DNA from: Nannocystis bainbridge
Lineage (GTDB): Bacteria > Myxococcota_A > Polyangia > Nannocystales > Nannocystaceae
Length of the DNA stretch: 64,000 nucleotides
Assembly (NCBI RefSeq): GCF_028368995.1
Contig: NZ_JAQNDL010000003.1
Coordinates: 2,688,001 to 2,752,000, forward strand
Direction of reading: 5' to 3'
The notes under the pieces: generated by a model
What the model was told of the DNA's origin: nothing
The model's database searches: none
What the model saw: the letters and a program-made list of their open reading frames with translations, nothing else
Made by a program: the position numbers and the translations under genes
Shown: piece after piece, positions 1,703-56,517 of the stretch
Layout: the number at the start of each line of letters is the position of its first letter
Numbering within the stretch: the stretch's first letter is position 1

Positions 1703-1808
1703 GCGCCCGGAGCTGTCCTCCGGGACATGTTATTTCGCGACTGCGCCCGGAGCTGTCCTCCGGGACATGTGAGACGGCCGTGCCCGGAGCTGTCCTCCGG
1801 GACACGTG
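1703..1808. repeat. Three copies of a ~28-bp unit GCGCCCGGAGCTGTCCTCCGGGACATGT, each carrying the TGTCC-N4-GGACA palindrome
   Basis: Copies near 1703, 1743 and 1781, between convergent genes. Confidence 0.95.
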
Positions 1809-1816
1809 ATTTCGCC

Positions 1817-3091
1817 TCAGGCGACGAACGCCGCCAGGCGATCGATCGCCGTCAGCACCCGCGGCGCGTGCCGGCGCAGCCACGCCTCGTCGATCGTCGC
1901 CGCCGGGTCGTGGCCGGCCAGCGCCGCCGCCCCGTCGAAATCGACGTAGGCCAGGCGCGCCGTCCAGTCGCCGAACGGCCGGCCGAAGTCGCTGCCCGGG
2001 AGAATGGCCACACCTGTCTCTTCGAGCAGGCGCTCGCACAGCGCCTCGCCGCCGGCGATCCCGCGCCGGCGCAGCGCGTCGGCCTGGCCGGAGAAGTCTG
2101 GGAACAGGTAGAACCCGCCCTGCGGAGCCGCGCAGGCGACCCCGCCGGCGAGCAAGCGCCGGTGGCACCAGCCGCCGAGCGCCTTCAAGATCGCCTGCTC
2201 GTGGGCCACGTAGGCGGCGATGTCCGGGCCGAATCCGAACGCGGTCACCGCGGCGCACTGGATCGGCGCGCTGGTCGAGGTGTACGTCTCGCTGGCGACC
2301 GCGATCATCGCCTGCTGCAGCCACTGCAGCTCGCGCGGGAACAGGAACGTGCCGAGGCGCCAACCGCCGGCCCCGCACCACTTGCTGAGGCCCGAGCTGA
2401 TGATCGTGCCCTCGGGGTAGAAGCGGGCGATCGACGTGTGAGCGCCGTCGTGGTGCAGCTCGCCGTAGATCTCGTCGGACACCACCAGCACCTCGTGCGC
2501 GCGCAGGACCTCGGCCAGCGCCGCCAGCTCGTCGGCGTCGTAGGTCTGCCCGGTCGGGTTCGACGGGTAGTTGAGGATCAGCACCCGCGGGCGCCCGGCG
2601 TCGCGCCGGCACAGCCCGTCGACGTCGGCCGGCGTCAGCTTCCAGCCGTTGTCGGCCCGCGTCGGCAGCCACACCACCTGCCGGCCGATGATGCGCGCCT
2701 GCGGCGAGTACGACACCCACGCCGGCGACGGCAGCACCAGGTCGCCGTAGAACGCCAGCTGGGTGATGAACATCAGCTCCTTGCTGCCGGGGGCGACCAG
2801 CACGTGATCGCCGCTGTACTCGCGCTCGCCGGCGACCCCGCGCTGATGGTAGGCCGCGACCGCCTCGCGCAGCGCCGGCAGCCCGCGCACCGGCATGTAC
2901 TCCTTGCGCGTCGCGTGGGCCCGCAGCGCCTCGACCACGCTGTCCGGCACCGGGAACGGCGACTGGCCGAGCCCGAGCTTGAACACCTCGCGTCCGGCGG
3001 CGAGGAGGTCGTTGCTGCGCTCGTTGATCGCCACCGTGGCCGACGGCGACAGGCCGCGGACCTGGAGGTTGAGGCTGGCTCGGCCGTGCAT
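1817..3091 (-). CDS. PLP-dependent aminotransferase, class I/II (aspartate aminotransferase-like)
   Basis: NYPSNPTG, SDEIY and SGLSKW..GGWRLG (PLP lysine) motifs. Confidence 0.92.
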   Translation of the reverse strand: MHGRASLNLQVRGLSPSATVAINERSNDLLAAGREVFKLGLGQSPFPVPDSVVEALRAHATRKEYMPVRGLPALREAVAAYHQRGVAGEREYSGDHVLVAPGSKELMFITQLAFYGDLVLPSPAWVSYSPQARIIGRQVVWLPTRADNGWKLTPADVDGLCRRDAGRPRVLILNYPSNPTGQTYDADELAALAEVLRAHEVLVVSDEIYGELHHDGAHTSIARFYPEGTIISSGLSKWCGAGGWRLGTFLFPRELQWLQQAMIAVASETYTSTSAPIQCAAVTAFGFGPDIAAYVAHEQAILKALGGWCHRRLLAGGVACAAPQGGFYLFPDFSGQADALRRRGIAGGEALCERLLEETGVAILPGSDFGRPFGDWTARLAYVDFDGAAALAGHDPAATIDEAWLRRHAPRVLTAIDRLAAFVA

Positions 3092-3095
3092 TCGA

Positions 3096-4742
3096 TCACC
3101 TGGCCTTTCGAGCAGCTTGCCTGTCCTCGCGGACGGCGCTGTTGTGGAGCGGGTTGGCGCGGCCGGAGCTGTCGGCGTCGGCCTGCCAGCGCGGCACCCA
3201 CCGCCGCACGCAGCGGGCCGCGTGCTCGCCGGGGAACAGCTCGGCGAACAGCGAGCGGTAAAGGTAGCCCTCCTTGGTGGTCGGCGTCTCGTGCGGGAAC
3301 CGGCGCCCGGCCTCGGCCAGATGCAGGTCCGAGACCGTCGCCTCGGCGTGGGCCTTGAGGCGCTCGACCCAGCCGTAGCCGACCCCGTCGGAGAACTGCT
3401 CTTTTTGCCGCCACAGCACCGCCGGCGGCAGCAGCGGGTCGGCCGGATCGGCGAACGCCGCCCGCAGCAGCGCCTTCTCCATCCGCGCCTCGCGCCCGGG
3501 CTCGGCCCGCAGCGGCCGCTTGAGCGCCGGATCGATCGTCATCGCCAGGTCGAGGAAGGCGAGGTCGAGGAACGGCACCCGCGCCTCGACGCCGTGCGCC
3601 ATCGTGCTCTTGTCGGCGCGCAGGACGTCGCTGAGGTGGAGGTTCTTGACCCGCTCGACCGTCTCGCGGAAAAACGCCTCCTCGCCCTCGGCGAAGTAGA
3701 AGTAGAGGTAACCGCCGAACACCTCGTCGGAGCCCTCGCCCGACAGCACCACCTTGACCCCCTGGTCCTTGATGTAGCGGCTGAGGCAATACATCGGGAT
3801 GCTCGCCCGCACCGTCGGGATGTCATACGATTCGGTGTGCCAGACGATGTCGCGCAGCGCCGCGACGCCCTCGTCGAGGTCGAGCCGGACCTCGTGGTGG
3901 TCGGTGCCGACGAACGCCGCCACGTCCCGCGCCGCCCGCAGGTCCGGCGAGTCGCCGTCGACCCCGATCGCGAACGACATCAGGCGCGCGTCCGGGTCGC
4001 GCCGCCGCGCCAGTCGGGCCGCCAGCGCCGCCACCAGGCTCGAGTCGAGCCCGCCCGACAGCAGCACCCCGAGCGGCACGTCGCTCATCAGCCGCTTGTC
4101 GACCGCCGCCTCGAACCGCTCGCGCAGGCCGGCGGCGTCGCGCCGGTAATCCGCCTGTCCTTCGAGCCATGTCCGCTCGTACCAGCGGCGCAGCCCGCCG
4201 CGGCGGGTGTAGACGTGGCCGGGCGGGAACACCTCGAACCACTCGCACTCGCCGGCCAGGACCTTGAGCTCGGACGCGAACCACAGGTTGCCGGCGCGGT
4301 CGCGGCCGTAGTAGAGCGGCTTTACGCCGATCGGGTCGCGCGCGACCAGCCAGTCGTCGTCGCGCAGGGCCGCCAGCGCGAACACGCCGTCGAGCTTGTC
4401 GACGAACGCGTCGCCCTGGGCCTCGAACAGGTGGGCCAGGACCTCGCTGTCGGAGCCGGTGCGGAACACCCGCCCCGCCGCCTGCAGCCCGGCGCGCAGG
4501 GCGGCGTGGTTGTAGATCTCGCCGTTGTGGACCACGGCGGCGCCGTCGCGCCCGAACAGCGGCTGCCGGCCCGAGGCCGGGTCCATGATCGAAAGCCGCC
4601 GGTGCAGCAGCGCGCCGACCCCCGGCAAGTAGTGCCTCCCGTGCCCGTCCGGGCCTCGGTGCGTCAGCCGCTCGCTCGCGGCTGTCGCTCGCGAGAGGAT
4701 CGCGTCATCGACGGCCCCGAAGACCGCGAGGATTCCACACAT
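3096..4742 (-). CDS. asnB: Asparagine synthetase B (glutamine-hydrolysing)
   Basis: MCGI Ntn start, HRGPD, HNGEIYN, LLSGGLDSS, SGEGSDE, RVPFLD, RQKEQFSDGVG. Confidence 0.95.
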   Translation of the reverse strand: MCGILAVFGAVDDAILSRATAASERLTHRGPDGHGRHYLPGVGALLHRRLSIMDPASGRQPLFGRDGAAVVHNGEIYNHAALRAGLQAAGRVFRTGSDSEVLAHLFEAQGDAFVDKLDGVFALAALRDDDWLVARDPIGVKPLYYGRDRAGNLWFASELKVLAGECEWFEVFPPGHVYTRRGGLRRWYERTWLEGQADYRRDAAGLRERFEAAVDKRLMSDVPLGVLLSGGLDSSLVAALAARLARRRDPDARLMSFAIGVDGDSPDLRAARDVAAFVGTDHHEVRLDLDEGVAALRDIVWHTESYDIPTVRASIPMYCLSRYIKDQGVKVVLSGEGSDEVFGGYLYFYFAEGEEAFFRETVERVKNLHLSDVLRADKSTMAHGVEARVPFLDLAFLDLAMTIDPALKRPLRAEPGREARMEKALLRAAFADPADPLLPPAVLWRQKEQFSDGVGYGWVERLKAHAEATVSDLHLAEAGRRFPHETPTTKEGYLYRSLFAELFPGEHAARCVRRWVPRWQADADSSGRANPLHNSAVREDRQAARKAR

Positions 4743-4832
4743 GCGTCGTTCTCCCTCCGCCGGGCCGCCGCCCGCGCAGGGGCCGGTTATAACGCCCCCG
4801 CGCCCCCGCGGCAACCGACGATCTCGCTCACA

Positions 4833-4950
4833 TGTCCCTCGGGACAGATTCATGAATCTCCTCGGTCGCATTACGCACGCGTAACGCCAATCGTGATTGT
4901 AATGAACGTCGGTTCGTCAATCGCATTGCGCGCAAAATTCCGGCGATTGA
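4833..4950. promoter_or_regulatory. Divergent promoter region with stacked palindromes
   Basis: TGTCC-N4-GGACA 4833-4846; AGATTCATGAATCT 4846-4859; TTACGC-AC-GCGTAA 4871-4884; CAATC-GT-GATTG 4888-4899; TCAATCGC..GCGATTGA 4917-4950. Confidence 0.55.
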
Positions 4951-5124
4951 TCCTTGCGGTGGCATCAGGCCCCATGTTAAGTTGCTGCTCAATCAGCGCA
5001 CAGCGGCGGCAGCGCGCCGGCGGACAGATCGTGCGGACTCTCGTGCGGCGTCTCGCCCGCGCCCGGCCGGCGCCTCATCCGCCCGATCGGCGAATCGCAC
5101 GGTCGGGCTCGCTCGGAGGATCCG

Positions 5125-6501
5125 ATGCCGGACGGCGCATTGAATCTGGGGACCTATCGCGCCTTCACGGCGCGCGACATCGACGTGATCCCGCAATTGC
5201 GCGGCCTGCCCGAGGAGGCGCGGCTGCGCCTGCGGGCGGTCGCGCAGGTGCTGCCGTTCCGCGTCAACGCCTACGTGCTCGAGCAATTGATCGATTGGTC
5301 GCGGGTCCCTGACGACCCGATGTATCAATTGACGATCCCGCAGGCGGAGATGCTGCACGAGGCCGACGTGAGCGCGTTGGTCGACCTGCTGCGCCGCGGC
5401 GACGACGCGGCGGTGCAGGCGCGGGCGCGGACGATCCAGCGGGCCATGAACCCGCACCCGGCCGGCCAGGTCGACCTCAACGTGCCGATCGAGGCCGGCG
5501 TCGAGCAGCGCGGGCTGCAGCACAAGTACCGCCAGACGGTACTGTTCTTCCCGGCGCAGGGCCAGACGTGCCACGCGTACTGTACGTATTGCTTCCGCTG
5601 GGCCCAGTTCGTCGGCCTCGACGACCTCAAGTTCGCCACGCGCGAGGCCGACTCGCTGGTCGAGTACCTCCGGCGTCACCCCGAGGTCAGCGACGTGCTG
5701 TTCACCGGCGGCGACCCGCTGGTGATGCGCACCAGCGTGCTGCGGCGCTACGTCGAGCCGCTGCTCAAGGCCGACCTGCCGAACCTGGCTCACATCCGCT
5801 TCGGCACCAAGGCGCTGGCGTACTGGCCGGCCCGCTTCCTCACCGACCCCGACGCCGACGACCTGCTGCGCCTGTTCGGCGAGATCGAGGCCGCGGGCAA
5901 GCACGTGGCCGTGATGGCCCACTACAGCCACCCGCGCGAGCTGGCGACGCCGGCCGCGGCGCGGGCGCTGCAGCGGGTGCGCGAGGCGGGCGCCGTCGTG
6001 CGCTGTCAGGCGCCGCTCATCCGCCACGTCAACGACGACCCCGACGTGTGGGCCGAGCTGTGGCGCACGCAGGTCCGCCACGGAGCTGTCCCTTATTACA
6101 TGTTCGTCGAGCGCGACACGGGCCCCAAGGAGTACTTCAAGGTCCCGCTGGACCGCGCGCTGAACATCTACCAGGGCGCCTACCGCCAGCTCTCGGGCCT
6201 GTGTCGCAGCGTGCGGGGGCCTTCCATGTCAGCGACGCCAGGAAAGATCCTCCTTGATGGCGTGACCGAAATTGACGGTCGTCGCTACTTTGTCCTACGT
6301 GTACTCCAAGGGCGCAACCCGGAGTGGGTGGGGCGCATCTTCTTCGCCGAATACGACCCCGACGCCGCGTGGCTGGACGAGCTCCGACCCGCATTCGGGG
6401 CATCCGAGTTCTTCTATACGGCTGAGCTCGCTGATCTGCGCCTTCGTCGCGCCGACCTGCGGCTGAGCGTGATCGGCGGTTCACATGCGGTCACCACGTG
6501 A
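5125..6501 (+). CDS. KamA-family radical SAM aminomutase-like protein
   Basis: GLQHKYRQTVLFF, CHAYCTYCFRW (CxxxCxxC), DVLFTGGDPL, HYSHPREL, PYYMFV, SATPGK (candidate PLP lysine). Confidence 0.9.
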   Translation: MPDGALNLGTYRAFTARDIDVIPQLRGLPEEARLRLRAVAQVLPFRVNAYVLEQLIDWSRVPDDPMYQLTIPQAEMLHEADVSALVDLLRRGDDAAVQARARTIQRAMNPHPAGQVDLNVPIEAGVEQRGLQHKYRQTVLFFPAQGQTCHAYCTYCFRWAQFVGLDDLKFATREADSLVEYLRRHPEVSDVLFTGGDPLVMRTSVLRRYVEPLLKADLPNLAHIRFGTKALAYWPARFLTDPDADDLLRLFGEIEAAGKHVAVMAHYSHPRELATPAAARALQRVREAGAVVRCQAPLIRHVNDDPDVWAELWRTQVRHGAVPYYMFVERDTGPKEYFKVPLDRALNIYQGAYRQLSGLCRSVRGPSMSATPGKILLDGVTEIDGRRYFVLRVLQGRNPEWVGRIFFAEYDPDAAWLDELRPAFGASEFFYTAELADLRLRRADLRLSVIGGSHAVTT

Positions 6502-6574
6502 GCACAGCCGGAAATCTCGGCGTTGACGCCTCCAGCCCCTTGCCGCACCATCGAAGACCCCCTGGATTTGACCG

Positions 6575-6877
6575 ATGAGTGAGCTCATGCCCGAGAACCC
6601 AGATGGCTGGACCTTCCTGACCAATCACGCGCACGTCTTGCTGTGCCTGGCGCAAGACCCCGAGATTCGTCTGTGCGATGTCGCCGCCGAAGTCGGCCTG
6701 ACCGAGCGTGGTGTCCAGCGAATCGTGAAAGAGTTGGCGACCTCAGGGTACATCACCCGCGAGCGCAACGGCCGGCGCAACCGTTACTTGGTGCATCAGC
6801 GCCAGCCCCTGCGCCGAACCATCGCCCGCCACCGCCAGGTCGGTGATTTGCTGCAGCTGATCGTCCAGGCGCGGTGA
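6575..6877 (+). CDS. Small winged-helix transcriptional regulator
   Basis: WTFLTNHAHVLLCLA, HTH VGLTERGVQRIV, wing RERNGRRNRY. Confidence 0.88.
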   Translation: MSELMPENPDGWTFLTNHAHVLLCLAQDPEIRLCDVAAEVGLTERGVQRIVKELATSGYITRERNGRRNRYLVHQRQPLRRTIARHRQVGDLLQLIVQAR

Positions 6878-7096
6878 GCCGCGGCGATCGCTCGCCGGGC
6901 GAGGCGCCGCCGATTCATGACTCCGGCTTCGGCATCGCCCATGTCCCATCAGACAGGTGCTGACGACGCCGAGGGCCGCTCCCGAGCTCCCGCTCACGGA
7001 GCGCCCGACGGGCCTCGCAGCCCTCCGCGCCCGGCTCGCCGCGGCCGCCTGCACCGGTGCGCGGCGGCGGCAGGTTCGCCCTGAGGGCTCGGCCGA

Positions 7097-8797
7097 TCAG
7101 CCGGGCGGGTTGGGGTTGATCTTGCCGGTGCCGGTGCCGCCCAGATACGCGTACGAGTCGTGCTGGTCGTAGCCGACGATGATGACCTGGAACGGTGAGT
7201 CGCCGCCGTCGAACACGTGCACGCCGTCAGGGCAGGTGATGCGCGCGACCTCGTAGCCGCTGGCGCCGACGGGGTTGAACTCGGCGTCGGAGATCGGGAC
7301 ACCATCCATGGTGATCGGGGCGCCGACCGGGCGGGTGATGACGGCGACGTCGGTGATCCAGGTGCCGGGCACGAGGACGACGTAGCGCGGCAGGTACTGC
7401 TCGACGGGCGCCATCTGCACCATCGCCGGGTCGCCGATCGAGCTGCCGAACGCCTCGGCGCCGACCATGTAGCCGTAGACGGCGATCGGCTTGTCGGCGA
7501 TGACCTCGAAGTCACCAGGCTCGGTCGCCGGCCCGGTGGCGTAGAACTCGCTCATCTGGTTGGCGTTGAGCACGAAGTTGGTCGCGGGGATGCCCGAGAC
7601 CCCCGGGTCGGCGTGGATGGTGACGTTGGTGTTCGGCTCGGAGGCGTAGATCTGCCACAGCGTGTTCTCGGGCGCGCCGGGGCTGCGGATCGGCATGCGC
7701 GAGGCGATGAAGTGCTTGCCCCACTGGCGCACGCCGGCCAGCTGCTCCTCCATGTGATCGCAGCAGCAGGTCGACTCGGGGATGAGCGCGCACTCCTGGC
7801 CGGCGAACACGGCGACGGGGTGATTCTCGTTGCTGTTGATCTTGGTGCCGGTCATGCTGTCGGGGATCGACTGCACGGCGACCGACAGCACGTCGCCCTC
7901 GTTGAGCGGGATCACGAACGGCGCCCCCGGAGCCCCCTGCGGCACGCTCGGGCCGGCCGCGGTCACGACGCTGGGCTCGACCTGGACCATGGTCCCGTCG
8001 ACGGTGGCGATGACGGTCACGTAGCTGTGCTGAAAGCCGTTGGTGTTGTCGTACATCGATTTCCACGCGGTCACGCGATTGATCGTGTCGAGCGCGGCCG
8101 CGGGGTACAGCATCGCCGCGTCCGAGAGGTACGAGGAGGCGCCGTCGACCGGGTTGAACTGATAGGCGACGACCGGGACGTCGGAGGTGACGCGATACGA
8201 GCCGCCCGGGTTGACGCCGGAGTCGTCGATGTGACGGTCGGGCAAGTTGAAGGTGTGCAGCGACAGCGGACCGACCGGCTGCGGCCCGCCGACAGTGGTC
8301 CACACCCCGCCGTTCTTGACCTCGACGACGACGTTGGCGCTGGCCGCCAGCTGGACGTTGGCGACGGCGATCGCGTACTGCGAGGTCTCGACCGAGTCGT
8401 GCGAGTCCATGTCGACGGCGTAGAAGCGACAGCCCACGGTGCTCTTGCCGGCGCTCGCCTGCTCGCACGTCTCGGGGATGATCGGCCCGTCGTCCGGCCC
8501 GCCGAAATCGGGCTGCATCTCGTTGCCGAAGTCGAACTTCGGGGTCGTGTCGCTGCTCACCGAGGTGGCGTCGGTCGGCGCGGTGGGGCTGGTCGTGCCG
8601 GCGGTGGTCGTGGGGTTGCTGGTCCCGGACTCGGTGCCGGGCTCGTCGGTGGTCGGGCTGCCCGTCGGGCCGATGCTGGCGATCGACGACACCCCGGTGA
8701 CCGGGAGGGTGGTCTCGCCGCGGCCCGAGTCGCCGCAAGCAGCGAGCAGGAGCAGGAGCGAGCCGAGAGGAGCGAGCCGCGGAGAGACGATGTGCAT
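7097..8797 (-). CDS. Lipoprotein with IgGFc-binding-like domain
   Basis: Lipobox LLAAC, Thr/Ser linker, STVGCRFYAVD, SDVPVVAYQFNP, CCCDHMEEQL, GDPAM, SYAYLGG. Confidence 0.85.
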   Translation of the reverse strand: MHIVSPRLAPLGSLLLLLAACGDSGRGETTLPVTGVSSIASIGPTGSPTTDEPGTESGTSNPTTTAGTTSPTAPTDATSVSSDTTPKFDFGNEMQPDFGGPDDGPIIPETCEQASAGKSTVGCRFYAVDMDSHDSVETSQYAIAVANVQLAASANVVVEVKNGGVWTTVGGPQPVGPLSLHTFNLPDRHIDDSGVNPGGSYRVTSDVPVVAYQFNPVDGASSYLSDAAMLYPAAALDTINRVTAWKSMYDNTNGFQHSYVTVIATVDGTMVQVEPSVVTAAGPSVPQGAPGAPFVIPLNEGDVLSVAVQSIPDSMTGTKINSNENHPVAVFAGQECALIPESTCCCDHMEEQLAGVRQWGKHFIASRMPIRSPGAPENTLWQIYASEPNTNVTIHADPGVSGIPATNFVLNANQMSEFYATGPATEPGDFEVIADKPIAVYGYMVGAEAFGSSIGDPAMVQMAPVEQYLPRYVVLVPGTWITDVAVITRPVGAPITMDGVPISDAEFNPVGASGYEVARITCPDGVHVFDGGDSPFQVIIVGYDQHDSYAYLGGTGTGKINPNPPG

Positions 8798-9224
8798 GCG
8801 AGACACCTCGAGCAGAGGCTCACGATAGGACCCACACCCACCCGCGCGGCGCACCACGGACGCGAGTTCTCACACGGTCATCACGGCCCCGCTCGCGTAC
8901 GACGACGGGGCATGACCCATCGCTCGCGCGGGCTCCTCCCCATCGCCCCGGCGGGCGCCACAGGCGGTCTCAAGGGCGATCGGGCCGCGAATTCGCGGAC
9001 GACGACCGGCGCGAGCGCGAGGGCCACGGTCCCCGCTCCGACGACCGCGAGCGCGCCCACGAGCACTCCGATCACGCATTCGAGTTCGACCTCGTCGATC
9101 GCGCGCGACAGGCCCGCGAACGACGCGACCGCGGCGATCACCGCCACAGGGCGAATGCGCGCCGGTCACGAGCGCTGAACCCCGGCCGCTGCACCGCGCG
9201 ACGCTGACGCCCGGCGCCGAGGAC

Positions 9225-9294
9225 TGGTCGTCACGACATGTCCTATTTAACATGCTCAAAAGGGCATGTCATCATGAACATGTCCTATGTGCCA
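9225..9294. repeat. Five tandem degenerate 14-bp units (TGYYY-N4-RRRCA type)
   Basis: CATG at 9237, 9251, 9265 and 9279. Confidence 0.9.
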
Positions 9295-9299
9295 GTCAA

Positions 9300-12247: not shown

Positions 12248-12534
12248 CGCAGCCGTCGGCGCAAATCGCCATTGGGTGACCCCACCCCCGGTGATTCGCG
12301 GGCGCGAATCGCCGCGGAACGTCGTACGAGCATTCGGCCGCGCGCGCCCGCCGGGCGGCGTGCGGCCGCCTCCACGCCGCCGCGCCGGGGTGAGACCGAT
12401 GTGAGGCGTTCGCCGCTGGTGTGGTGATTGCCGCAGCGGCCCGAGTGAATGCACTTCGATGCGATAGAAACAAGTGGCAAAAGTGCTCGTCCACGGTTCG
12501 CTCGCCCGCTCGCGGCGGGGAGTTCGCGTGCGAA

Positions 12535-36190: not shown

Positions 36191-36195
36191 TCACT

Positions 36196-44828: not shown

Positions 44829-44831
44829 GTT

Positions 44832-45881: not shown

Positions 45882-45987
45882 GGCGCGCAACGAGACCACG
45901 GCGAACGCGCCCTGTAAAGCGCACCCCGCTCGCGACGTGGCCCACGTCGCACCGCGATGGCCGCTGCGTTATGCTCGCGGGCCCCGG

Positions 45988-48736: not shown

Positions 48737-48785
48737 CGCAACGGTCAGCGTCGCACAATCGCTGCCCGTCTGGTACTGTCGCGGC

Positions 48786-50075
48786 GTGACGGCCCTCGGC
48801 GTCGGCATCCTCGGCCTCGGCAACGTCGGCGCGGGCACGGTGCGGCTCCTCGGCGAACGCCGCGAGCGCATCGAAGCCCGCCTCGGGGTGGCCCCGACCA
48901 TTCGTCGTATCCTCGTGCGCGACCGCGAGCGCGAGCGGGCCGTCGAGGTCGCGCCGGAGCTGCTCACCACCGACATCGACGAGGTCCTCGGCGACCCCGA
49001 GATCGCCATCGTCGTCGAGCTCATGGGCGGCGTCGAACCGGCGCGCAGCTACATCCTGGCCGCGCTGCGGGCCGGCAAGCACGTCGTCACCGCCAACAAG
49101 GCGGTGCTCGCCGAGCGCGGCGCCGAGATCTTCGCCGAGGCCGCGCGGGTCGGTCGGGCCGTCGTCTTCGAGGGCAGCGTCGCCGGCGGGATCCCCCTGC
49201 TCCGCAGCCTGCGCGAAGGCCTCGCAAGCGACCGGATCACCGGCCTTTGCGGGATCGTCAACGGCACCTCCAACTACATCCTCGACGCCATGACCCGCAC
49301 CGGCGCCGGCTTCGCCGACGCGCTCGCCGGGGCCCAGGCCGCCGGTTACGCCGAGGCCGACCCCAGCCTCGACGTCGGGGGCGGCGACGCGGCCCACAAG
49401 CTGGCGCTGCTGGCCCTCGTGGCCTTCGGCGTGCAGGTCGACCCGGGCACGATCGCCACCGAGGGGATCTCCCACGTCACCGCGTTCGACATCCGGGCCG
49501 CGGCGGAGCTCGGGTTCGTCATCAAGAGCCTGGCGATCGGCCAGCGCGACGAGCACGGCGTCGGCCTCCGCGTCCACCCCACGCTGGTCCCCCGGGACCA
49601 CGTGCTCGCCGGCGTCCAGGGGGCCTTCAACGCCGTGCTGGTCCAGTCCGACGCCCTCGGCCCCAGCCTCTACTACGGCCGCGGCGCCGGCATGATGCCG
49701 ACCGCCGTCGCCGTGGTCTCCGACATCCTCGAGGTCGCCCGCGACATCCTCGCTGGCCTGTACTCGCGGCCAGGTCCTTCCGGACATGTCCCTTCGACCA
49801 CCTCAAAGCCCGTCAGCCTGCGCCCGCTGGCCGAGGTCGTCTGCGCGCACTACCTGCGCTTCCGCGCCCCGCACGTCCCCGGCGTGCTCGGCCGCGTCGC
49901 CGCCTGCCTCGGCCGCCACGGCGTCAGCATCCGCCGCATGGCGCAGGAGACCCCGTCGGCCGACGGCTCGGCGGCGATGGTCATGCTGACCGAGCCCGTC
50001 GCCGACGGCTCACTCGCGGCCGCCCTGGTCGAGGCCGCCCTGCCCGTCACCCGCCTGCGCCTGCTCGCGGAGTGA
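48786..50075 (+). CDS. hom: Homoserine dehydrogenase with ACT domain
   Basis: GLGNVG, VVTANK, FEGSVAGGIP, NGTSNYIL, GYAEADP, GRGAG. Confidence 0.95.
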   Translation: MTALGVGILGLGNVGAGTVRLLGERRERIEARLGVAPTIRRILVRDRERERAVEVAPELLTTDIDEVLGDPEIAIVVELMGGVEPARSYILAALRAGKHVVTANKAVLAERGAEIFAEAARVGRAVVFEGSVAGGIPLLRSLREGLASDRITGLCGIVNGTSNYILDAMTRTGAGFADALAGAQAAGYAEADPSLDVGGGDAAHKLALLALVAFGVQVDPGTIATEGISHVTAFDIRAAAELGFVIKSLAIGQRDEHGVGLRVHPTLVPRDHVLAGVQGAFNAVLVQSDALGPSLYYGRGAGMMPTAVAVVSDILEVARDILAGLYSRPGPSGHVPSTTSKPVSLRPLAEVVCAHYLRFRAPHVPGVLGRVAACLGRHGVSIRRMAQETPSADGSAAMVMLTEPVADGSLAAALVEAALPVTRLRLLAE

Positions 50076-50234
50076 CGGCGGCTCGACCTGTTCGAAGAGA
50101 CAGATCGCGGCGTTCGGCGCGGTCGACGGCGGACCGACCTGCCCGAAGAGACAGTGATCGGCATGCGGCGCAGCCGGCCGAAGCTCCTCGGCCCGGCGAG
50201 CGACGATCGTGAATCACCTGTCCTCAGGGACAGC

Positions 50235-50540
50235 TCACACGATCTCCGGGAACACCGCGTCGTAGCGCAGCAGGCAGAAGATCGCCCGCGGCTGATCGCG
50301 GATCCCGGCGATGTGCAGCGCGCCTCCGCGCTGCTTGAGGTGCATGTACAGCCCCATGATCTTGGCCACCCCCGCGTTGTCGATGTGCTCCAGCCCGGAC
50401 AGCTCGAGCGTCACCTGCTTGCGGCCCTCGGCGAGCACCGCGTCGAACGGCGTGTCGGTGTTCGCCGCCGTCGCGGCATCGAGGCTGCCGGCGAGCGCGA
50501 GGGTGGTCGTATCGTCCTGGTCGGTGCGCGAGATCTGCAT
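50235..50540 (-). CDS. STAS-domain anti-sigma factor antagonist
   Basis: LAGSLDA, LELSGLEHIDNAG, 101 aa. Confidence 0.85.
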   Translation of the reverse strand: MQISRTDQDDTTTLALAGSLDAATAANTDTPFDAVLAEGRKQVTLELSGLEHIDNAGVAKIMGLYMHLKQRGGALHIAGIRDQPRAIFCLLRYDAVFPEIV

Positions 50541-50607
50541 GGGCTTCGCCGCATCGTAGCCCGGCGCCCGGCCCATGCACGAGCGCGATCCGCCGCGAGC
50601 CTCCGCG

Positions 50608-52077
50608 CTATGAGACGTCGGCCTCGATGCGCGCCACCAGCCGCTCGCAGAGCGTCTCCACGTACTCGCGCGACGCCAGCGCGCGCAGCCACGCCTCCGG
50701 GATCGCCGCGCGCCCGTGCATCGCCCCGGCCAGCGCCCCCGTGACCGCCGCCGTCGTGTCCGTGTCCTCGCCGAGGTTGATCGCTGCCAGCACGGCCGCC
50801 TCGTAGCTCGGGTGATTCGCCGCGCACCACAGGCTCGCCTCGAGGCAGTGCACCACATAGCCGCTGCCGCGGATCGCCGACGCCGGCGCCTCGACGATCG
50901 ACCCGTCGAGGATCGCCGCGAGCACCTCGCGCTCCGCATCCGGCACGAACGGCGCCAGCTGTTGCGACGCCGTCGTCATCGCCTGCGCCAGCGGCCGCCC
51001 CTGCACCACCTGCGCCAGCAGCAGCGAGAAGTACGCGCAGCACAGCTGCGAGCGCGGGTGCGCGTGCGTCAGCCCGCTGACCTCCATGCTGCAGCGAACG
51101 ATCTCCGCCGGCGCCAGCGCGCGGGTGAACAGCGACAGCGGCGCGATCCGCATCAGCGACCCGTTGCCGTTGTCGCGCTCGCTGCGGCAGCCCCACTCGC
51201 TCGCCGGGGCGCCGTGGGCGTGGCGGGCGATCGCGCTGCGCGTGGCGATGCCGACGTCGAACACCGCCCCGTGCGGCGTGTATGCCTGTCCCTTGAGCCA
51301 GGTCAAGAACCGCGCCATCATGTCGGGTGGGTCGTAGCCGTTGTGGATCAGGCTGTCGGCGGTGGCCAGCAGCAGCGAGCTGTCGTCGGACCACGTCCCC
51401 GGCGGCTGATCATACGTCCCGTGGCCGCGCACCCCCGTGACCGGGTCCGCGGACAGTTGCTCGCGGCTGCGGAATTCGACGGGGACACCGAGCGCATCAC
51501 CGACCACGGCCCCGAGCAGGCACCCGAGCATGCGCGCATGCGCGTCGACGCTTGCCGAGGGCCCAGGGTCGGCCAGAATCGCCGCATACGCCTCATGCAC
51601 GGCCCCGTCGAAGCACACCAGCACGACCCGCTCGATCGCGGCGTCCTCGGCCAGGAACGCCGAGATCGTGCGCACCGCGACGGCGCAGGCCTCCGCGATC
51701 GGGTAGCCGTAGATGCCGCACGAGATCGCCGGGAAGGCGATCGTGCGCAGCCCGTGGGCCCGCGCCAGCTCGAGGCTGCTGCGATAGCACGACGCCAGCA
51801 GCGCCTCCTCGCCGCGATGGCCCCCGTTCCACACCGGGCCCACCGTGTGGATCACGTGCTTCGCCGGCAGGCGATGGCCGCCGGTGATCTTCGCCTGTCC
51901 CGTGGGGCAGCCGTGGAGCATGCGGCACTCCTCGACCAGCTCGCGCCCGGCCGCGCGGTGGATCGCCCCGTCGACCCCGCCACCGCCGAGCAGCGACGTG
52001 TTGGCCGCGTTGACGATCGCGTCCACCGCGAGCCGCGTGATGTCCCCGCGAACCAGCTCGATCCGTCGCTCCGCCAT
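50608..52077 (-). CDS. Macro domain (YmdB-like) fused to ADP-ribosylglycohydrolase (DraG/ARH)
   Basis: [29 protein letters not shown]; GDALG, WSDD, GNGSLMR, THAH, GEDTDT. Confidence 0.93.
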
Positions 52078-52181
52078 CCCGGGAGTGTAAGCCCCGATCG
52101 CCCCTCCGGCCACCGGCACCGCCGCGCTTGCACATTTTTCAACCCTCGGTCAGATTCTCGACACTCATGAAGGAGGCCCGC

Positions 52182-52853
52182 GTGCTGCAGCCGATCGACA
52201 CCAACTTGTGGACCGCCACCCAGCCGCTGCGCATGCTCGGCCTGCAGATCGGCGCTCGCATGACCATCGTCCGGCTCGGCTCCGGCGGCCTCCTGGTCCA
52301 CGCGCCGATCGGTCTGACCCCCGAGCTGCGGGCCGAGATCGACACGCTCGGGCCGGTGCAGGTCGTCATCGCTCCCAACTCGATGCACCACCTGTTCCTC
52401 GGGCCCTTCCTCGCCGCCTACCCGCAGGCGCGCGGCTACGCGGTCGCCGGCGCGATCGCCAAGCACCCCGAGCTGCAGCTCGAGAGCATCCCCAACAACC
52501 CCGACCTGCTCTGGGCCGGCGACCTCGACCAGATCGAGCTCGAGGGCGCCCCCAAGCTCGGCGAGGTCGCCTTCTTCCACCGCGCCTCGCGCACGCTGAT
52601 CCTCACCGACTGGGTGTTCTACTTCGAGCAGGCGCCCAACTGGATCACCGGGCTCTACCTCCGCCTCACGCGCGCCCTCGGCAAGCCGACCCAGACCGCG
52701 GTGATGAAGGGCCTGATCAAGGACCGGGCCGCCGCCCGCGCCTCGATCGAGCGCCTGTTGCAGTGGGACTTCGACCGCGTCGTCATGAGCCACCGCGACA
52801 TCCTGCCGGCCGGCGGCAAGCAGGCCGTGCGCGCCGCCACCGCCTGGCTGTAG
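52182..52853 (+). CDS. DUF4336-like (metallo-beta-lactamase fold) protein
   Basis: AGGAGG RBS before GTG; RMTIVRL, APNSMHH, EVAFFH..TLILTD, MSH. Confidence 0.85.
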   Translation: MLQPIDTNLWTATQPLRMLGLQIGARMTIVRLGSGGLLVHAPIGLTPELRAEIDTLGPVQVVIAPNSMHHLFLGPFLAAYPQARGYAVAGAIAKHPELQLESIPNNPDLLWAGDLDQIELEGAPKLGEVAFFHRASRTLILTDWVFYFEQAPNWITGLYLRLTRALGKPTQTAVMKGLIKDRAAARASIERLLQWDFDRVVMSHRDILPAGGKQAVRAATAWL

Positions 52854-52892
52854 CGCCAGGTCCTTCGCGGCATGTTCTCTGCGACAGGTCCC

Positions 52893-53555
52893 ATGGGACA
52901 GCCACGCACCGCCGCCGAACCCGAGCCGAGCCCCGAGGCGCGGCGCCTGGCTCGCAAGTCGCGGCGCCAGGACAACCGCCGCCAGCAGATCCTCCGCGCC
53001 GCCCGCGAGGTGCTGCTGGCGAGCGGCCCCGAGGCGTTCACGATGGAGCAGGTGGCCCGGGCCGCCGACGCCAGCAAGGCCGCGCTCTACTATTATTTCG
53101 AGGCCAAGGAGGAGGTCGTCGCGGCCCTGGCGATCGAGGCCCTGCGGCGCGAGGTCGAGGCCGTCAGCGCCGCCGTGATCGCCGCCGAGCGCGGCATCGA
53201 CGGCCTCGCGGCGCTGCTGCGCGGCCGCGTCGAGCACTACCTCGCCGACCCCGACTCGTTCCGGATCCTCTACACCTGGGCGCCGACGCTGGGCGCGACC
53301 CAGCGCCTGGTCCTGGCCGAGATCTTGCCCCTCACCGCGGTCGTCAGCCAGACGCTCGAGGCCAAGCTGCAGCGCGACCGCAAGGCCGGTCTGCTCCACC
53401 CCGACGCCAACCCGGCCCGCCTGTCCCAGGTCGCCTGGATCACCAGCCACGGCCTGCTCAGCTACGCGATGAACCAACCCCACCCGGAGCGCGGCGCCTG
53501 GCGCCCCCTGTGCGACGAAGCCTGCGCCGCCCTGGTCCGCGGCGCCACGCGCTGA
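52893..53555 (+). CDS. TetR/AcrR-family regulator
   Basis: ILRAAREV..FTMEQVARAADASKAALYYYFEAKEE. Confidence 0.92.
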   Translation: MGQPRTAAEPEPSPEARRLARKSRRQDNRRQQILRAAREVLLASGPEAFTMEQVARAADASKAALYYYFEAKEEVVAALAIEALRREVEAVSAAVIAAERGIDGLAALLRGRVEHYLADPDSFRILYTWAPTLGATQRLVLAEILPLTAVVSQTLEAKLQRDRKAGLLHPDANPARLSQVAWITSHGLLSYAMNQPHPERGAWRPLCDEACAALVRGATR

Positions 53556-53793
53556 CGCAGCTCATGGCCGCGAGCCGCGGCGTCGTGATGCACTGCGATG
53601 AATGCTGCGCCAGCCCGGTCCGCGGCGCCACGCGTGACTCAGTACATCGCCGCGAACCGCAGCGTCGCTATGCGCTGCGACGAAGCCTGCGCCGCCCCGG
53701 TCCGCGGCGCCACGCGTGACTCAGGACATCGCCGCGATCCGCGGCGTCTCAATGCGCTGTGACGAAGCCTGCGCCACCCCGGTCCGCGGCGCC
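53511..53793. repeat. About 3.5 tandem copies of an 82-83-bp unit starting inside the TetR 3' end
   Basis: Unit starts at 53511, 53594, 53676 and 53758. Confidence 0.93.
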
Positions 53794-53899
53794 TCGAACG
53801 TCGCGTGCTCCGTCCCCCTGCCAGCAATCGCGCCTCTGAGGCCGCGGTCGCTTCGCCACGATCTCTTTCGATCTTCGAGCCCGCGAGGCGACGCTCGTC

Positions 53900-54682
53900 T
53901 CACGGCGCCAGCCACACGTCGCCGGACTCGACCCTGCGCGGCGGCCCGCCGTCTGCCAGCGCGACCATCAGCGCCCCGTCGTCGGCCAGCCCCAGCGCCT
54001 TTGCCTGCACCTTCGGGCCTGCCCCATTCGACATGTCCACAAAGACATCCCGATCTCGCAGCGCGCAGTGGGGCTCGTAGCGGCCGCGGATCGCCGCGAA
54101 CCCGCCGGAGAAGAACTGCTCCAGCGCGGCCTCCAGCGCCGGCAAGATCCGCCCCAGCACCGCCTCGCGGCTCGGCGTTGCTTCGCCCAGCTCGCGGCGC
54201 AGGCTCGTCGCCGTCGCTGCCAGCGGCTCGGGGAACAGCGACCGACCCACGTTGACGCCGAAGCCGACCACCACCTCGGGCGACGACCCGACCCACCGCG
54301 CCTCGCAGAGGATCCCCGCCAGCTTGCGGCCTTCGACCAGCACGTCGTTGGGCCACTTCAGCTGCGCCGCTGGCAGCCAACGCGACAGGCCCTCGCGCAG
54401 CCCTGCGCCCACCGCCAGCCCGAGCGCCCCGATCGGCTTGCCCGCGTCCGGCCGCAAGATCGCGCTGACATACAGGTCCTCGCCCGACTCCGACGCCCAC
54501 GCCCGCCCCAGCCGCCCGCGCCCCGCCGTCTGTGCGTCCGCGGTCACCAGCGCCCCGTGCGGCGCCCCGGCCCGCGCCCACGCCAGCGCGCGATCGTTGG
54601 TCGACCCGAGCTCGGCCCAGTGCTCGCGCGGGCGCCCGAGCCAGCGCGTCGCAAAGGCCATATTTTCGAAGGAGTCGCTCAC
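53900..54682 (-). CDS. birA: Biotin-protein ligase (no N-terminal HTH)
   Basis: STND, QTAGRGRLGRAW, KWPNDV, KLAGIL, GFGVN. Confidence 0.92.
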   Translation of the reverse strand: MSDSFENMAFATRWLGRPREHWAELGSTNDRALAWARAGAPHGALVTADAQTAGRGRLGRAWASESGEDLYVSAILRPDAGKPIGALGLAVGAGLREGLSRWLPAAQLKWPNDVLVEGRKLAGILCEARWVGSSPEVVVGFGVNVGRSLFPEPLAATATSLRRELGEATPSREAVLGRILPALEAALEQFFSGGFAAIRGRYEPHCALRDRDVFVDMSNGAGPKVQAKALGLADDGALMVALADGGPPRRVESGDVWLAP

Positions 54683-54863
54683 GCCCGCCCCCCGCAGGGC
54701 ATCCGCCGTTGCGAGCCCCTGGACAGGCGCATCGTCAGCACGAACACCCTCGATCGCTCGAAGAATCTGTCCCTTCGGACATCCCCAGCGCTCCGCGCGA
54801 GCATCCGCGCACGCGGTCGCTCTTCACTGCACATGTCCCTTCAGACATGCCCCATTCACCGGC

Positions 54864-55727
54864 TCACGCCCACGTCCCGTCGGCGCGCTCGAACAGCAGC
54901 GAGATGTCCGCCGCCGGCACGCTGTGCGTCAGGCGGCCCACGCTGATCACGTCGATCCCCAGCTGCGCCACCGCGGCGATGCGCTCGAGCCCGACCCCGC
55001 CCGACACCTCGAGGATCGCCTTGCCGGCCGTGATCGCCACCGCCTCGCGGACCGCGGCGTCGTCCATGTTGTCGAGCATGATGATGTCGGCCCCCGCGGC
55101 CAGCGCCTCGCGCAGCTCCGCGTGGCTCGTCACCTCGCACTCGATCTTCATCGTGTGCGGCGCCACCTGGCGCGCGCGCGTGATCGCCGGCGTGATCCCG
55201 CCGGCCGCGCGCACGTGGTTCTCCTTGATCAGCACCGCCGCCCCGAGGTCGTTGCGGTGGTTGTGGCCGCCGCCGCAGCGGACCGCGTAGCGGTCGAGCG
55301 CGCGCAGGCCGGGCATCGTCTTGCGGGTGTCGGTGATCCTGCATCGACCGCCGGCCGCGTCGGCGTAGGCGCGGGTCAGCGTCGCCACCCCGGACATGCG
55401 CTGCAGCAGGTTGAGCGCCGTGCGTTCGGCCGCCAGCAGCGCCTGGGCCGGCCCCTCGATGCGCGCGATCTCGGTCCCGACCGTCACGCGCGCGCCCTCG
55501 CGCACGTAGGCGGTGAACCCCACTCCTGGCTCGACCCGGCGGAACACCGCCTCGGCGACCTGCAGACCGGCCACCACCAGGTTCGCCTTCGCCACCATGT
55601 GCGCGACCGCGCCCACCTCGGGGCTCACCGTCGCGCGGCCGGTGACGTCGCCGCTGGCCAGGTCCTCGGCCAGCGCCGTGTCGATGATCGCCGCCACGGA
55701 TCCGAGCTCGCTCCAGGGGTCACGCAT
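54864..55727 (-). CDS. nadC: Quinolinate phosphoribosyltransferase
   Basis: ERTALN, DTRKT, NHR, LIKENH, IMLDN, EVSGG. Confidence 0.96.
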   Translation of the reverse strand: MRDPWSELGSVAAIIDTALAEDLASGDVTGRATVSPEVGAVAHMVAKANLVVAGLQVAEAVFRRVEPGVGFTAYVREGARVTVGTEIARIEGPAQALLAAERTALNLLQRMSGVATLTRAYADAAGGRCRITDTRKTMPGLRALDRYAVRCGGGHNHRNDLGAAVLIKENHVRAAGGITPAITRARQVAPHTMKIECEVTSHAELREALAAGADIIMLDNMDDAAVREAVAITAGKAILEVSGGVGLERIAAVAQLGIDVISVGRLTHSVPAADISLLFERADGTWA

Positions 55728-55836
55728 GGCCCGGAGGGTGCCACACGGCCCTGCCGCTCGCCACCGCCGCTGCGTCCGCGCGGCCGCGTCGTCCCCGGCC
55801 CATGCCGGCGCGCGCTCGGCATGTCCCGCTCGCCAC

Positions 55837-56517
55837 TCACGCCGCGTGCCAGCGCTCGATCGGCCAGCCGAGGGCGCGGGCGCGCCGGAGCAGGCGTGGG
55901 TCCGGGCTCACCACTTGCGGTCGGCCCACGCGCTCGAGCATCGGCAGGTCCGAATAGCTGTCCGTATAAAAGTAACTTCGGGACAGGTCGATGTCGTGCT
56001 CCGCCGCGAACTTCTCCGCCAGCACCACCTTGCCCGGCCCCGCGCACGCCGGCGCCACGTGCTTGCCGGTGAGGCGCCCGCCCTGCTCCTCGAGCCGGGT
56101 GCACAGCACGTGCTCGACGCCCAGGCGCTCCGCCAGCGGCTCGACCGAGAAGCGCGTGCCTGACGACAGCAGCGCCACCACGTGCCCGTCGCGGCGGTGG
56201 CGGGCCACGCGGGCCTGTCCTTCGGGGCAGATCCAGCGCACGATCTCCGCCTCGAACCACGCCCGCGTCTCCGCCTCCACCTCGGCCACGGGCACCCCTG
56301 CGTAGTCGCGGACCGCCTTGGCCGTCATCGCCTCGAGGTCGAGCAGCGAGAGGCGGTAGCGGACCACCCACGCCAGCGAGCGCAGCGCCCTGGCCGCCGA
56401 CATCTTGCCGGAGCGTCGCTGGTGCCGCACCCACAGCACCGCCGAGTTCACGGCGAGCAGGGTGTGATCGACGTCGAAGAACGCGGCCACGGTGCTCGGC
56501 TCGGGCCTGGTCGTCAC
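55837..56517 (-). CDS. HAD-IB family hydrolase
   Basis: FFDVDHTL, GPGK, FYTDSYSDLPML; GTG overlaps the upstream TGA. Confidence 0.92.
   Translation of the reverse strand: MTTRPEPSTVAAFFDVDHTLLAVNSAVLWVRHQRRSGKMSAARALRSLAWVVRYRLSLLDLEAMTAKAVRDYAGVPVAEVEAETRAWFEAEIVRWICPEGQARVARHRRDGHVVALLSSGTRFSVEPLAERLGVEHVLCTRLEEQGGRLTGKHVAPACAGPGKVVLAEKFAAEHDIDLSRSYFYTDSYSDLPMLERVGRPQVVSPDPRLLRRARALGWPIERWHAA

Follow-up and report, generated by a model that had tools for sequence, protein, structure and literature searches.

What is a 14-bp palindrome, TGTCC-N4-GGACA, doing sixteen times in 64 kb of ordinary bacterial chromosome, in genes and spacers alike? The stretch analyzed here, called the window, is 64,000 nucleotides long and comes from Nannocystis bainbridge (RefSeq assembly GCF_028368995.1, contig NZ_JAQNDL010000003.1; G000:C2:2688001-2752000 in the handles used below). 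The genome, G000, is 11.05 Mb in 5 contigs, has 71–72% GC content and is 90.5% complete. An earlier note on this DNA had listed 16 perfect copies and about 20 degenerate loci, 14 of them by position. It attributed them to an abundant DNA-binding protein, as a nucleoid organizer, segregation or division-site factor, or to a HIP1-like system. The dominant feature, missed in that reading, is the anchoring of the motif at the 3′ ends of protein-coding genes, with 14-bp arrays phased to the stop codon.

All 16 perfect copies were recovered at the positions given in the note. Dinucleotide-preserving shuffles of the window (100) contain a mean of 0.04 and at most 1. With up to one mismatch the window holds 38 sites, where 1.58 are expected and no shuffle exceeds 4. 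Genome-wide there are 1987 perfect dyads, and 6245 sites with up to one mismatch. The spacer length is strict: N4 accounts for the 1987 copies, and every other spacer from N0 to N12 for 0–16 each. Exactly one mismatch is found in 4258 N4 sites versus ~250 in N3/N5 controls (98–267 across N3, N5, and N6), and two mismatches in 7530 versus 2058–4617 with N3, N5, or N6 spacers. The N4 excess over these controls implies some 6–9 thousand real sites. Within called coding regions, 10 synonymous-codon shuffles yielded 17–28 perfect copies and 5 codon-order shuffles 2–5, against 771 in the real sequence. With up to one mismatch, coding sites number 2536, versus ~450 and ~260 in the two kinds of shuffle. 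Chance and codon artifact were rejected on these counts. The earlier note would have given up its proposal had codon-preserving shuffles matched the real count; the enrichment over them is 35-fold.

The consensus is a 20-bp palindrome, R-C-(A/C)-TGTCC-Y-Y-R-R-GGACA-(T/G)-G-Y, with the extended form ACATGTCC-yyrr-GGACATGT. Conservation declines symmetrically away from the dyad. Positions 2 (G) and 13 (C) hardly vary; 3 and 12 are the loosest. The free spacer and mostly unrelated flanks of the note are borne out, with two qualifications. The spacer prefers YYRR, and three bases on each side are semi-conserved (ACA-TGTCC...GGACA-TGT). The two half-sites vary nearly independently of each other. 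This variation and the symmetry fit a dimeric protein, in keeping with the DNA-binding site that the note proposed.

Genes were called with a codon log-odds heuristic of our own, which gives 8088 genes, 83.6% coding sequence, and approximate starts. Although spacers make up 16.4% of the genome, 1209 perfect sites are intergenic; 771–778 (39%) are coding. Perfect sites occur at 1.56 per kb in convergent, 0.64 in co-directional, and 0.22 in divergent spacers, and at 0.084 per kb in coding sequence, with an overall intergenic/coding ratio of ~8. Counted with up to one mismatch, density is 0.15–0.3 per kb in genes, 5.2–6.3 per kb in the 0–75 nt past stops, ~1.2 per kb by 400 nt, and 0.8 per kb immediately upstream of starts. 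The jump at stop codons is 25–30-fold, and 2058 of the 8088 genes have a site within 100 nt past the stop. At least one site is present in 50–65% of convergent spacers of 30–400 nt, and in those of 400–800 nt the sites lie close to both stops. At 60–100 nt, 58% of convergent versus 14% of co-directional spacers carry a site, and at 30–60 nt 38% versus 11%. This contrast at equal length indicates that a site is not neutral inside operons.

The same pattern appears in 400 kb of a second species. There, sites with up to one mismatch occur at 3.1 per kb in convergent, 0.93 in co-directional, and 0.70 in divergent spacers and at 0.35 per kb in coding sequence; a site lies past the stop in 56 of 299 genes and before the start in 18. 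Across quintiles of codon score, a rough proxy for expression, genes with a post-stop site rise from 16% to 32%, and those with at least two sites from 5.6% to 15%. Relative to synonymous shuffles, coding copies are enriched 26–44-fold, with no trend, in quintiles 1–4 and 19-fold in the top quintile. Internal site density climbs with gene length from 0.12 to 0.40 per kb.

Many sites abut. Distances from one GGACA to the next peak at 14, 28, 42, 56, and 70 nt (639, 322, 288, 146, and 73 cases), the mark of sites joined head-to-tail as GGRCATGYCC-N4 units. CATG-N10-CATG occurs 3736 times, versus 72 for N9 and 262 for N11. With up to one mismatch, exact 14-bp chains comprise 426 doubles, 25 triples, and 3 quadruples beside 5306 singles, and further units emerge at two mismatches. 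Spacers within an array all differ, so the arrays are not products of recent slippage. Relative to the stop codon, offsets of -2, 12, 26, 40, and 54 and of 3, 17, and 31 are over-represented, since TGA forms part of a half-site (TGAcc or TGAca).

The repeat unit is the N4-centered 14-mer, as dyads often stand alone and decamers rarely do. Neither outer half is present, at a threshold of at least 3 mismatches on both sides, in 493 of the 1987 dyads, whereas only 33 of 956 GGACATGTCC decamers are without both partners. A unit centered on CATG is thereby ruled out. The GGACA half-site alone is not enriched (11418 versus 10251 expected). The decamer equals the p53 half-site consensus. A p53-type response element was rejected because the decamer is not an independent unit; PF00870 (p53 fold) had no match in G000, but the control genomes went undetected too. 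Sites also multiply by a second route, local tandem duplication of 37–75-bp units with one site each, as at 1714/1754/1791. Similar local tandem families with periods of ~54–72 bp are found at C1:306356-306467 and C1:4162786-4162984.

The sites and arrays of the window are as follows, with genes on the reverse strand marked (-).

1714–1727: perfect site, copy 1 of a 37–40-bp tandem triplet in convergent spacer 1687–1816.
1754–1767: perfect site, copy 2 of the triplet.
1791–1804: perfect site, copy 3 of the triplet.
3122–3135: one-mismatch site, final codons of asparagine-synthase-like gene 3096–4742 (-).
4833–4846: perfect site, divergent spacer 4743–5124, or the 5′ end of the gene if its start is 4871.
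6942–6955: one-mismatch site, convergent spacer 6878–7096.
11132–11145: one-mismatch site, long uncalled stretch 10478–11362.
15805–15856: array of ~4 14-bp units; 15810 is perfect, 15824 and 15838 have one mismatch.
18217–18230: one-mismatch site inside tetratricopeptide-repeat (TPR) protein gene 16957–19497 (-).
18343–18356: one-mismatch site, same TPR gene (-).
18388–18401: perfect site, same TPR gene (-).
18460–18473: perfect site, same TPR gene (-).
19566–19579: perfect site, ~11 nt past the stop of gene 19591–21312 (-).
21356–21369: one-mismatch site, divergent spacer 21313–21722.
24850–24863: perfect site inside the LigD gene 22565–25351.
25355–25381: degenerate two-unit array directly after the LigD stop, convergent spacer 25352–25395; 25368 has one mismatch.
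28216–28229: perfect site inside methyltransferase gene 27194–28378.
29654–29667: perfect site inside metallophosphoesterase gene 29536–30294 (-), with codons TGT and GGA.
31390–31403: one-mismatch site (TGACC half) inside kinase gene 31255–32772 (-).
33065–33078: perfect site, long uncalled stretch 32773–33782, no alignable orthologue.
34804–34817: perfect site inside histidine-kinase gene 33783–35258.
35521–35548: two abutting one-mismatch sites (35521, 35535), 5′ end of called gene 35438–36190.
39654–39667: one-mismatch site, uncalled stretch 38489–39829.
40994–41077: array of six 14-bp units, convergent spacer 40961–41180, with a perfect site at 40999.
42319–42346: degenerate two-unit stretch (two mismatches each) around GGACATGTCC, inside gene 41181–42947 (-).
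43031–43044: one-mismatch site, divergent spacer 42948–43172.
47542–47555: symmetric two-mismatch variant TGCCC-CAAA-GGGCA, ~120 nt past the stop of gene 45988–47424.
47806–47819: one-mismatch site, co-directional spacer 47425–48083.
49773–49786: one-mismatch site inside homoserine dehydrogenase gene 48621–50075.
50219–50232: perfect single site, convergent spacer 50076–50234; RNA fold -11.7 kcal/mol, z -2.3.
51896–51909: one-mismatch site inside gene 50608–52077 (-).
52887–52900: one-mismatch site, 34 nt past the stop of gene 52167–52853, overlapping the called start of a TetR gene.
54034–54047: one-mismatch site inside gene 53900–54661 (-).
54768–54781: perfect site, ~83 nt past the stop of gene 54864–55697 (-); RNA fold -5.8 kcal/mol, z -0.5.
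54834–54847: one-mismatch site, ~16 nt past the stop of gene 54864–55697 (-).
56216–56229: one-mismatch site inside gene 55837–56490 (-).
63892–63905: one-mismatch site inside the gene starting at 63584 (-).

The degenerate loci of the earlier note resolve into three groups. Eight are exact one-mismatch sites (3122, 6942, 11132, 21356, 35521, 49773, 54834, and 56216). Four more (25354, 43017, 52874, and 54020) each lie 13–14 nt from a one-mismatch site and correspond to the neighboring array unit. The remaining two are two-mismatch sites, TGCCT-CATA-GGACA at 42319 and the variant at 47542. The array at 15805–15856 fills the convergent spacer 15803–15856 and begins 3 nt past the stop of gene 12653–15802. 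The array at 40994–41077 reads GGGCATGTCC tcgc GGACATGCCC tttt TGACATGGTC aaaa GAGCATGTCT caga GGGCATGACC attc AGACATGTCA.

A Pfam survey of 46 window genes returned an ordinary housekeeping context (asnB-like, Ku-LigD, kinases, dnaG-rpoD) and no candidate for a cognate protein. At 21723–25351 a Ku gene adjoins a three-domain LigD gene (phosphoesterase, ligase, and primase-polymerase), a non-homologous end-joining pair. Gene 50608–52077 (-) encodes a Macro domain fused to an ADP-ribosylglycohydrolase domain and has a STAS-domain gene adjacent. A dnaG-rpoD pair occupies 58104–61914. Its RpoD is 615 aa with a long non-essential region, and its nearest named relative, at 87% identity, is from a Nannocystis metagenome-assembled genome (MAG).

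At chromosome scale, only 6 of 550 20-kb bins are empty and no origin/terminus gradient is seen. Gaps between site clusters are more clumped than random (coefficient of variation, CV, 1.29). GC skew flips sign at C3 ~1.5 Mb and C1 ~4.4 Mb, candidate origin or terminus regions, and motif density is unchanged there. The longest gaps free of sites span 25–44 kb; they are low in GC or codon score, or contain giant genes. C1:1.1-1.3 Mb, C2:741506-785869, and the other gaps over 25 kb show GC of 0.66–0.70, lower codon score, or genes up to 5728 aa; such site-poor stretches could be acquired islands or clusters of biosynthetic genes. Three glutathione-S-transferase genes with identical Pfam scores (C5:711340-712086, C5:715820-716566, and C2:963-1709, at the contig start) are probably a repeat that broke the assembly.

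The sites are not copies of one another. Only 127 of 1987 match another at 23 or more of 28 non-core positions, and these are mostly local tandem duplicates. The other 1860 share flank and spacer no more than random 38-mers do. A search for the transposase of repetitive extragenic palindromic (REP) elements (RAYT; Y1 transposase, PF01797) gave 0 matches in G000, at its 90.5% completeness, and detected 6 of 14 control genomes. Perfect coding copies occur all along genes and in every phase (441, 271, and 66). As a 14-nt insertion would shift the frame, these copies are not such insertions. Unrelated flanks and spacers, the RAYT result, and the 35-fold excess of coding copies over synonymous shuffles together argue against a mobile repeat. 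The earlier note's view of a recognition site rather than a copied element is upheld on these grounds.

Core bases are conserved between species, with a divergence of 2–3%. When 30 perfect sites of a congener were aligned to G000, 21 were perfect and 9 had one mismatch. Core divergence is 8/250 in coding and 1/50 in intergenic sites, the latter a thin figure since only 14 of the 111 alignable congener sites are intergenic; flanks diverge by 12–30% and intergenic spacers by 8/20. One-mismatch coding sites are no better conserved than their flanks (10.3% versus 11–13%). These comparisons indicate that sites are kept by selection or by sustained drive. Within the window, 28216 is identical in 5/5 congeners, 34804 is perfect in 5/5 with a different spacer in four, and 24850 is perfect in 4/5 with one mismatch in the fifth. 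The same one-mismatch variant at 31390 is kept in 5/5. Site 19566 is perfect in G001 only, with one mismatch in G010, G007, and G005 and two in G003. Site 21356 is perfect in G001, G007, and G005, has one mismatch in G010, and has no alignment in G003. The array at 40994, after gene 39830–40960, has an orthologue with changed spacers in 5/6 congeners and is absent in G004.

Site 29654 captures the birth of a site. It is present in G000, G001, and G003, and the orthologous positions have 4–5 mismatches in G005, G007, and G010 and 3 in G002. The peptide is K-G-C-P-E-G-Q (codons TGT and GGA) in three species, K-G-Y-P-E-G-T in three, and K-G-S-P-E-G-Q in a distant congener. As an outgroup, no orthologue was found family-wide at E≤1e-30, and among five further congeners only G002 has one. 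Orthologous sites differ through point changes, not clean insertions. By this evidence the Nannocystis word arose in place and not by transposition.

Whether the motif acts as DNA or as RNA was addressed by its substitutions and folding. One-mismatch sites, which break the 5-bp stem, outnumber perfect sites 2:1. Watson-Crick-compensated pairs make up ~331 of ~2874 excess two-mismatch sites (~11%). In co-directional spacers, changes that form G.U in the sense RNA (319) are about as frequent as those that form C.A (286). Spacer composition is mirror-symmetric in sense orientation, stable tetraloops are not in excess, and no T-run follows 3′ of the sites. In coding copies pairing stops at the core. 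Intergenic stems reach on average 1.47 bp further, versus 0.95 bp in controls; 22% of them are at least 8 bp long and ~78% are 7 bp or less. Three single sites were folded as RNA, at -5.8 to -11.7 kcal/mol, and two of the three do no better than shuffles. The arrays at 15805–15856 and 40994–41077 fold at -24.4 kcal/mol (z -4.3) and -43 kcal/mol (z -6.2). In the triplet at 1700–1815, each unit also holds an overlapping palindrome, CCCGGAG/CTCCGGG, and RNA folding favors it over the stem of the motif. Hairpin-plus-T terminators number 10 versus 4.1 expected at 1–20000, three being the motif itself, and 4 versus 4.5 at 40001–60000. Over the 40 kb scanned, classic terminators of this kind are therefore close to chance expectation. 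The near independence of the half-sites and the lack of transcript-strand asymmetry point to recognition on double-stranded DNA rather than as an RNA hairpin.

The motif is nearly confined to one genus. Perfect copies number 114–2090 in 10/10 same-genus genomes searched and 0–8 in 28 of 30 other relatives; a reversed-pattern control gives 0–10. Two other Nannocystaceae genera (G011 and G013) hold 87 and 161 copies against reversed controls of 10 and 1. Those in G013 are dispersed, with CATG flanks in only 2/161. The Nannocystis expansion may have set out from a low-copy state of this kind. Scans of G011 (400 kb) and G013 (498 kb) found no other enriched 5-N0..8-5 palindrome. A 24-bp double unit, GGACATGTCC-N4-GGACATGTCC, was searched in one genome per species across 185,579 species and matched 78 stretches. 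Of these, 64 are Nannocystis (N. exedens, pusilla, punicea, radixulma, sp. RBIL2, and MAGs). A Nannocystaceae MAG accounts for 9 more and a Myxococcales MAG for 2; the last 3 are single matches in unrelated taxa. Among viral sequences the double unit occurs in 1 contig, which holds a single perfect site. In sequencing runs searched as contigs, parts of the window locus turned up only in soil and root metagenomes. With 75 of the 78 stretches from Nannocystis, Nannocystaceae, or related myxobacteria, the motif is a near-unique DNA signature of Nannocystis. No description of it was found in the open-access literature searched; genome papers on Nannocystis could mention it. The relevant part of PMC5217627 concerns other motifs in other bacteria.

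The explanation we favor, though tentatively, is that the dyad is the site of a putative dimeric DNA-binding protein that marks the ends of mRNA genes as a bidirectional stop or insulator and binds cooperatively on arrays. A symmetric, probably dimeric Nannocystis protein would read TGTCC-N4-GGACA on duplex DNA. Its sites would arise in place through point mutation and then be held by selection. Its main place of action would be the 3′ end of protein-coding transcription units, within ~75 nt past the stop and often starting from the TGA. At busy or convergent ends, abutting 14-bp units would set neighboring dimers 120 degrees apart round the helix, where stacked units may be bound cooperatively. 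By blocking or insulating RNA polymerase, the bound protein would mark or enforce the gene end whichever way transcription runs, and arrays would add strong hairpin potential. A bolder version, which we rate as unlikely, sees a protein-written full stop: an abundant genus-specific dimer would polymerize on 14-bp-phased dyads that start within the stop codon, and halt or insulate RNA polymerase from both directions at about a quarter of genes. Conserved intragenic copies would then act as back-up stops where a polymerase has lost its ribosome.

Several results weigh against a protein that ends transcription. Compensated double changes are ~3-fold over their share of combinations, yet a minority. 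Convergent spacers with sites have a mean folding z of -4.8 (90% below -2), against -1.9 in those without, which are structured too; a hairpin mechanism at arrays is therefore possible, and hairpins may contribute where sites are stacked. A site lies within 150 nt downstream of only 9 of 102 tRNA genes (ARAGORN) and upstream of 3, and none lies within ~1 kb of any of the 3 5S rRNA genes. A general terminator should serve stable-RNA genes too, though the numbers are small. The tRNA set includes three tandem tRNA-Cys genes at C1:3057230-3057513 with motif sites between them. A role at gene ends leaves unexplained the 771–778 perfect coding copies, which are conserved between species, and a roadblock within genes should be costly. 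Start codons and some spacers are uncertain with heuristic gene calls. The protein itself was sought through promoter-proximal sites not explained by the 3′ end of a neighbor. These mark 238 genes, 47 of them small; the 40 small genes examined hold no recurrent DNA-binding family, only two ordinary TetR regulators. PF01555 methyltransferases are present in 40/41 related genomes irrespective of motif count, so this family does not discriminate and points to no cognate enzyme.

In the main rival reading, possible though doubtful, the dyad is instead a genome word comparable to the DNA uptake sequences (DUS) and uptake signal sequences (USS) or to the cyanobacterial palindrome HIP1. Uptake, recombination, or methylation-linked machinery would then prefer the dyad by drive or by selection for exchange. 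Removal from costly places would leave a pile-up past stops, where palindromes would also serve as terminators. Such a word would account for coding copies that are hugely enriched, reading-frame-biased, and conserved, for a coding site (29654) built via two amino-acid changes, for the intergenic/coding ratio of ~8, and for a genus restriction that resembles a dialect. The longest site-free gaps, with low GC and low codon score, look like acquired DNA. According to part of 10.1101/2025.10.24.684340, predicted terminators hold about half of all DUS/USS, and those within genes are frame-biased; part of PMC5861425 describes HIP1 as 15–300-fold over-represented and conserved within and between ORFs. 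Genes for ComEC (PF03772) and DprA (PF02481) are present; both are near-universal and say little. However, uptake words are asymmetric and act singly, whereas here the dyad is strict and the half-site alone is not enriched. Uptake alone would not be expected to yield 14-bp stop-anchored arrays or local tandem duplications. Depletion in co-directional relative to equal-length convergent spacers and clustering near stops show that the sites are not neutral to transcription. In addition, spacing is clumped rather than even, and no alternative 5-Nx-5 word was found in the 0.4–0.5 Mb searched in each of two sister genera.

The other alternatives are less likely still. An RNA element would be an mRNA 3′ hairpin, alike in both directions, that terminates without a U-tract or blocks 3′ exonucleases, its sequence kept since a hairpin-binding factor or nuclease prefers it. 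Sites past protein-coding stops and rarely past tRNA or rRNA genes are expected of an mRNA element, and a 4-nt spacer is a natural loop size. The very stable arrays (-24 to -43 kcal/mol), the structured site-bearing convergent spacers, and the modest excess of compensated changes also suit it. We nevertheless regard it as improbable, given that most intergenic stems are 7 bp or shorter, two of the three single sites folded do no better than shuffles, and stem-breaking variants are twice as common as perfect sites. G.U changes are not favored over C.A changes, loops have no strand bias or tetraloop excess, no T-run follows, and coding copies are conserved despite no stem extension. A protein acting at chromosome scale on nucleoid organization, segregation, or division siting was the main proposal of the earlier note and is very improbable. 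It would draw on thousands of sites with few empty bins, on conserved coding copies, and on internal density that rises with gene length, as a need for regular sites would suit. Against it, density has no gradient or regional restriction at the GC-skew switches and gaps between clusters are over-dispersed; the stop-codon jump, the convergent/co-directional difference, and the stop phasing are left unexplained. The sites known as matS, SBS, NBS, and parS number tens to about a hundred and lie in defined regions; here 6245 sites with up to one mismatch are found on all contigs. A mobile or copied element, either a REP/REPIN spread by RAYT or the end of a miniature inverted-repeat transposable element (MITE), has next to no likelihood and was rejected. 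Many copies of a palindrome at gene 3′ ends, in clusters and arrays, recall REP and bacterial interspersed mosaic elements (BIME) as portrayed in parts of PMC2817692 and PMC3337134, and a few local tandem duplicates are present. Yet PF01797 was not found, 1860 sites are unrelated outside the core, 39% of perfect copies are coding, with every phase represented, and orthologous sites are set apart by point changes.

By the features compared, the motif does not fit REP/RAYT, DUS/USS, HIP1, intrinsic terminators, or organizer sites, and it matches none of the dispersed motifs named in the earlier note (matS, SBS, NBS, parS, HIP1, DNA uptake sequences). In the parts of PMC2817692 and PMC3337134 that concern them, REP/BIME are described as hundreds to thousands of short palindromes past genes, often between convergent genes, single or clustered, and lineage-specific. 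Like them, the Nannocystis motif is enriched at gene 3′ ends and clustered. Unlike REP/REPIN-RAYT systems, it has no RAYT that was found, and copies share only 10–16 core bases and not loop or flanks. Its perfect copies are 39% intragenic rather than extragenic, and its arrays run head-to-tail at an exact 14-bp period, whereas REPs alternate with linker motifs. DUS (Neisseriaceae) and USS (Pasteurellaceae) are similar in their ~500-fold enrichment, about one site per 1–2 kb, genic copies with frame bias, concentration in terminators, conservation, and taxon restriction, as set out in part of 10.1101/2025.10.24.684340. They differ as asymmetric, single-copy 9–12-mers that make hairpins only from inverted pairs; the Nannocystis unit is an indivisible 5-N4-5 dyad, and its phased arrays have no counterpart among them. 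HIP1 (GCGATCGC, cyanobacteria) is a hyperabundant palindrome, selectively maintained within and between ORFs and of debated function (parts of PMC5861425 and PMC4390886); PMC5861425 reports no evidence for a peptide-motif, RNA-motif, or gene-expression role. The Nannocystis palindrome is likewise vastly over-represented and conserved within and between ORFs. In contrast to HIP1, a contiguous 8-mer containing known orphan-methyltransferase sites, it is bipartite, array-forming, 8-fold denser in spacers, and stop-codon-anchored.

Intrinsic terminators share the post-stop position, the bidirectional use between convergent genes, and, in arrays, GC-rich stems with 4-nt loops. The Nannocystis sites differ in having no U-tract and stems of mostly 5–7 bp, in conserving stem sequence rather than pairing, and in following few tRNA genes and no 5S rRNA gene. 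Abutting or phased short symmetric sites bound by dimers are familiar from MetJ met-boxes and plasmid partition iterons. Roadblock terminators (mitochondrial mTERF, Pol I Reb1/TTF-I) place several protein sites just downstream of a gene. These systems involve few loci and known proteins; in Nannocystis there are thousands of loci, and the suggested function follows from position. To our knowledge, no genome-wide roadblock terminator is known in bacteria.

Among the hyperabundant, selectively maintained words of bacteria (REP, DUS/USS, and HIP1), the Nannocystis motif is a fourth architecture: bipartite, strictly spaced, stop-anchored, and array-forming. Transcription ending in GC-rich myxobacteria is poorly understood, and in Nannocystis a single 14-bp dyad marks about a quarter of the gene ends of an 11–13-Mb genome, with conservation throughout a genus that has cultivable type strains. 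If the full-stop reading were true, it would be a genome-wide, sequence-specific code of roadblock terminators or insulators, of a kind with precedents in mitochondria and eukaryotic Pol I but none known in bacteria. The motif might also serve as a portable terminator or insulator part in the engineering of these natural-product producers.

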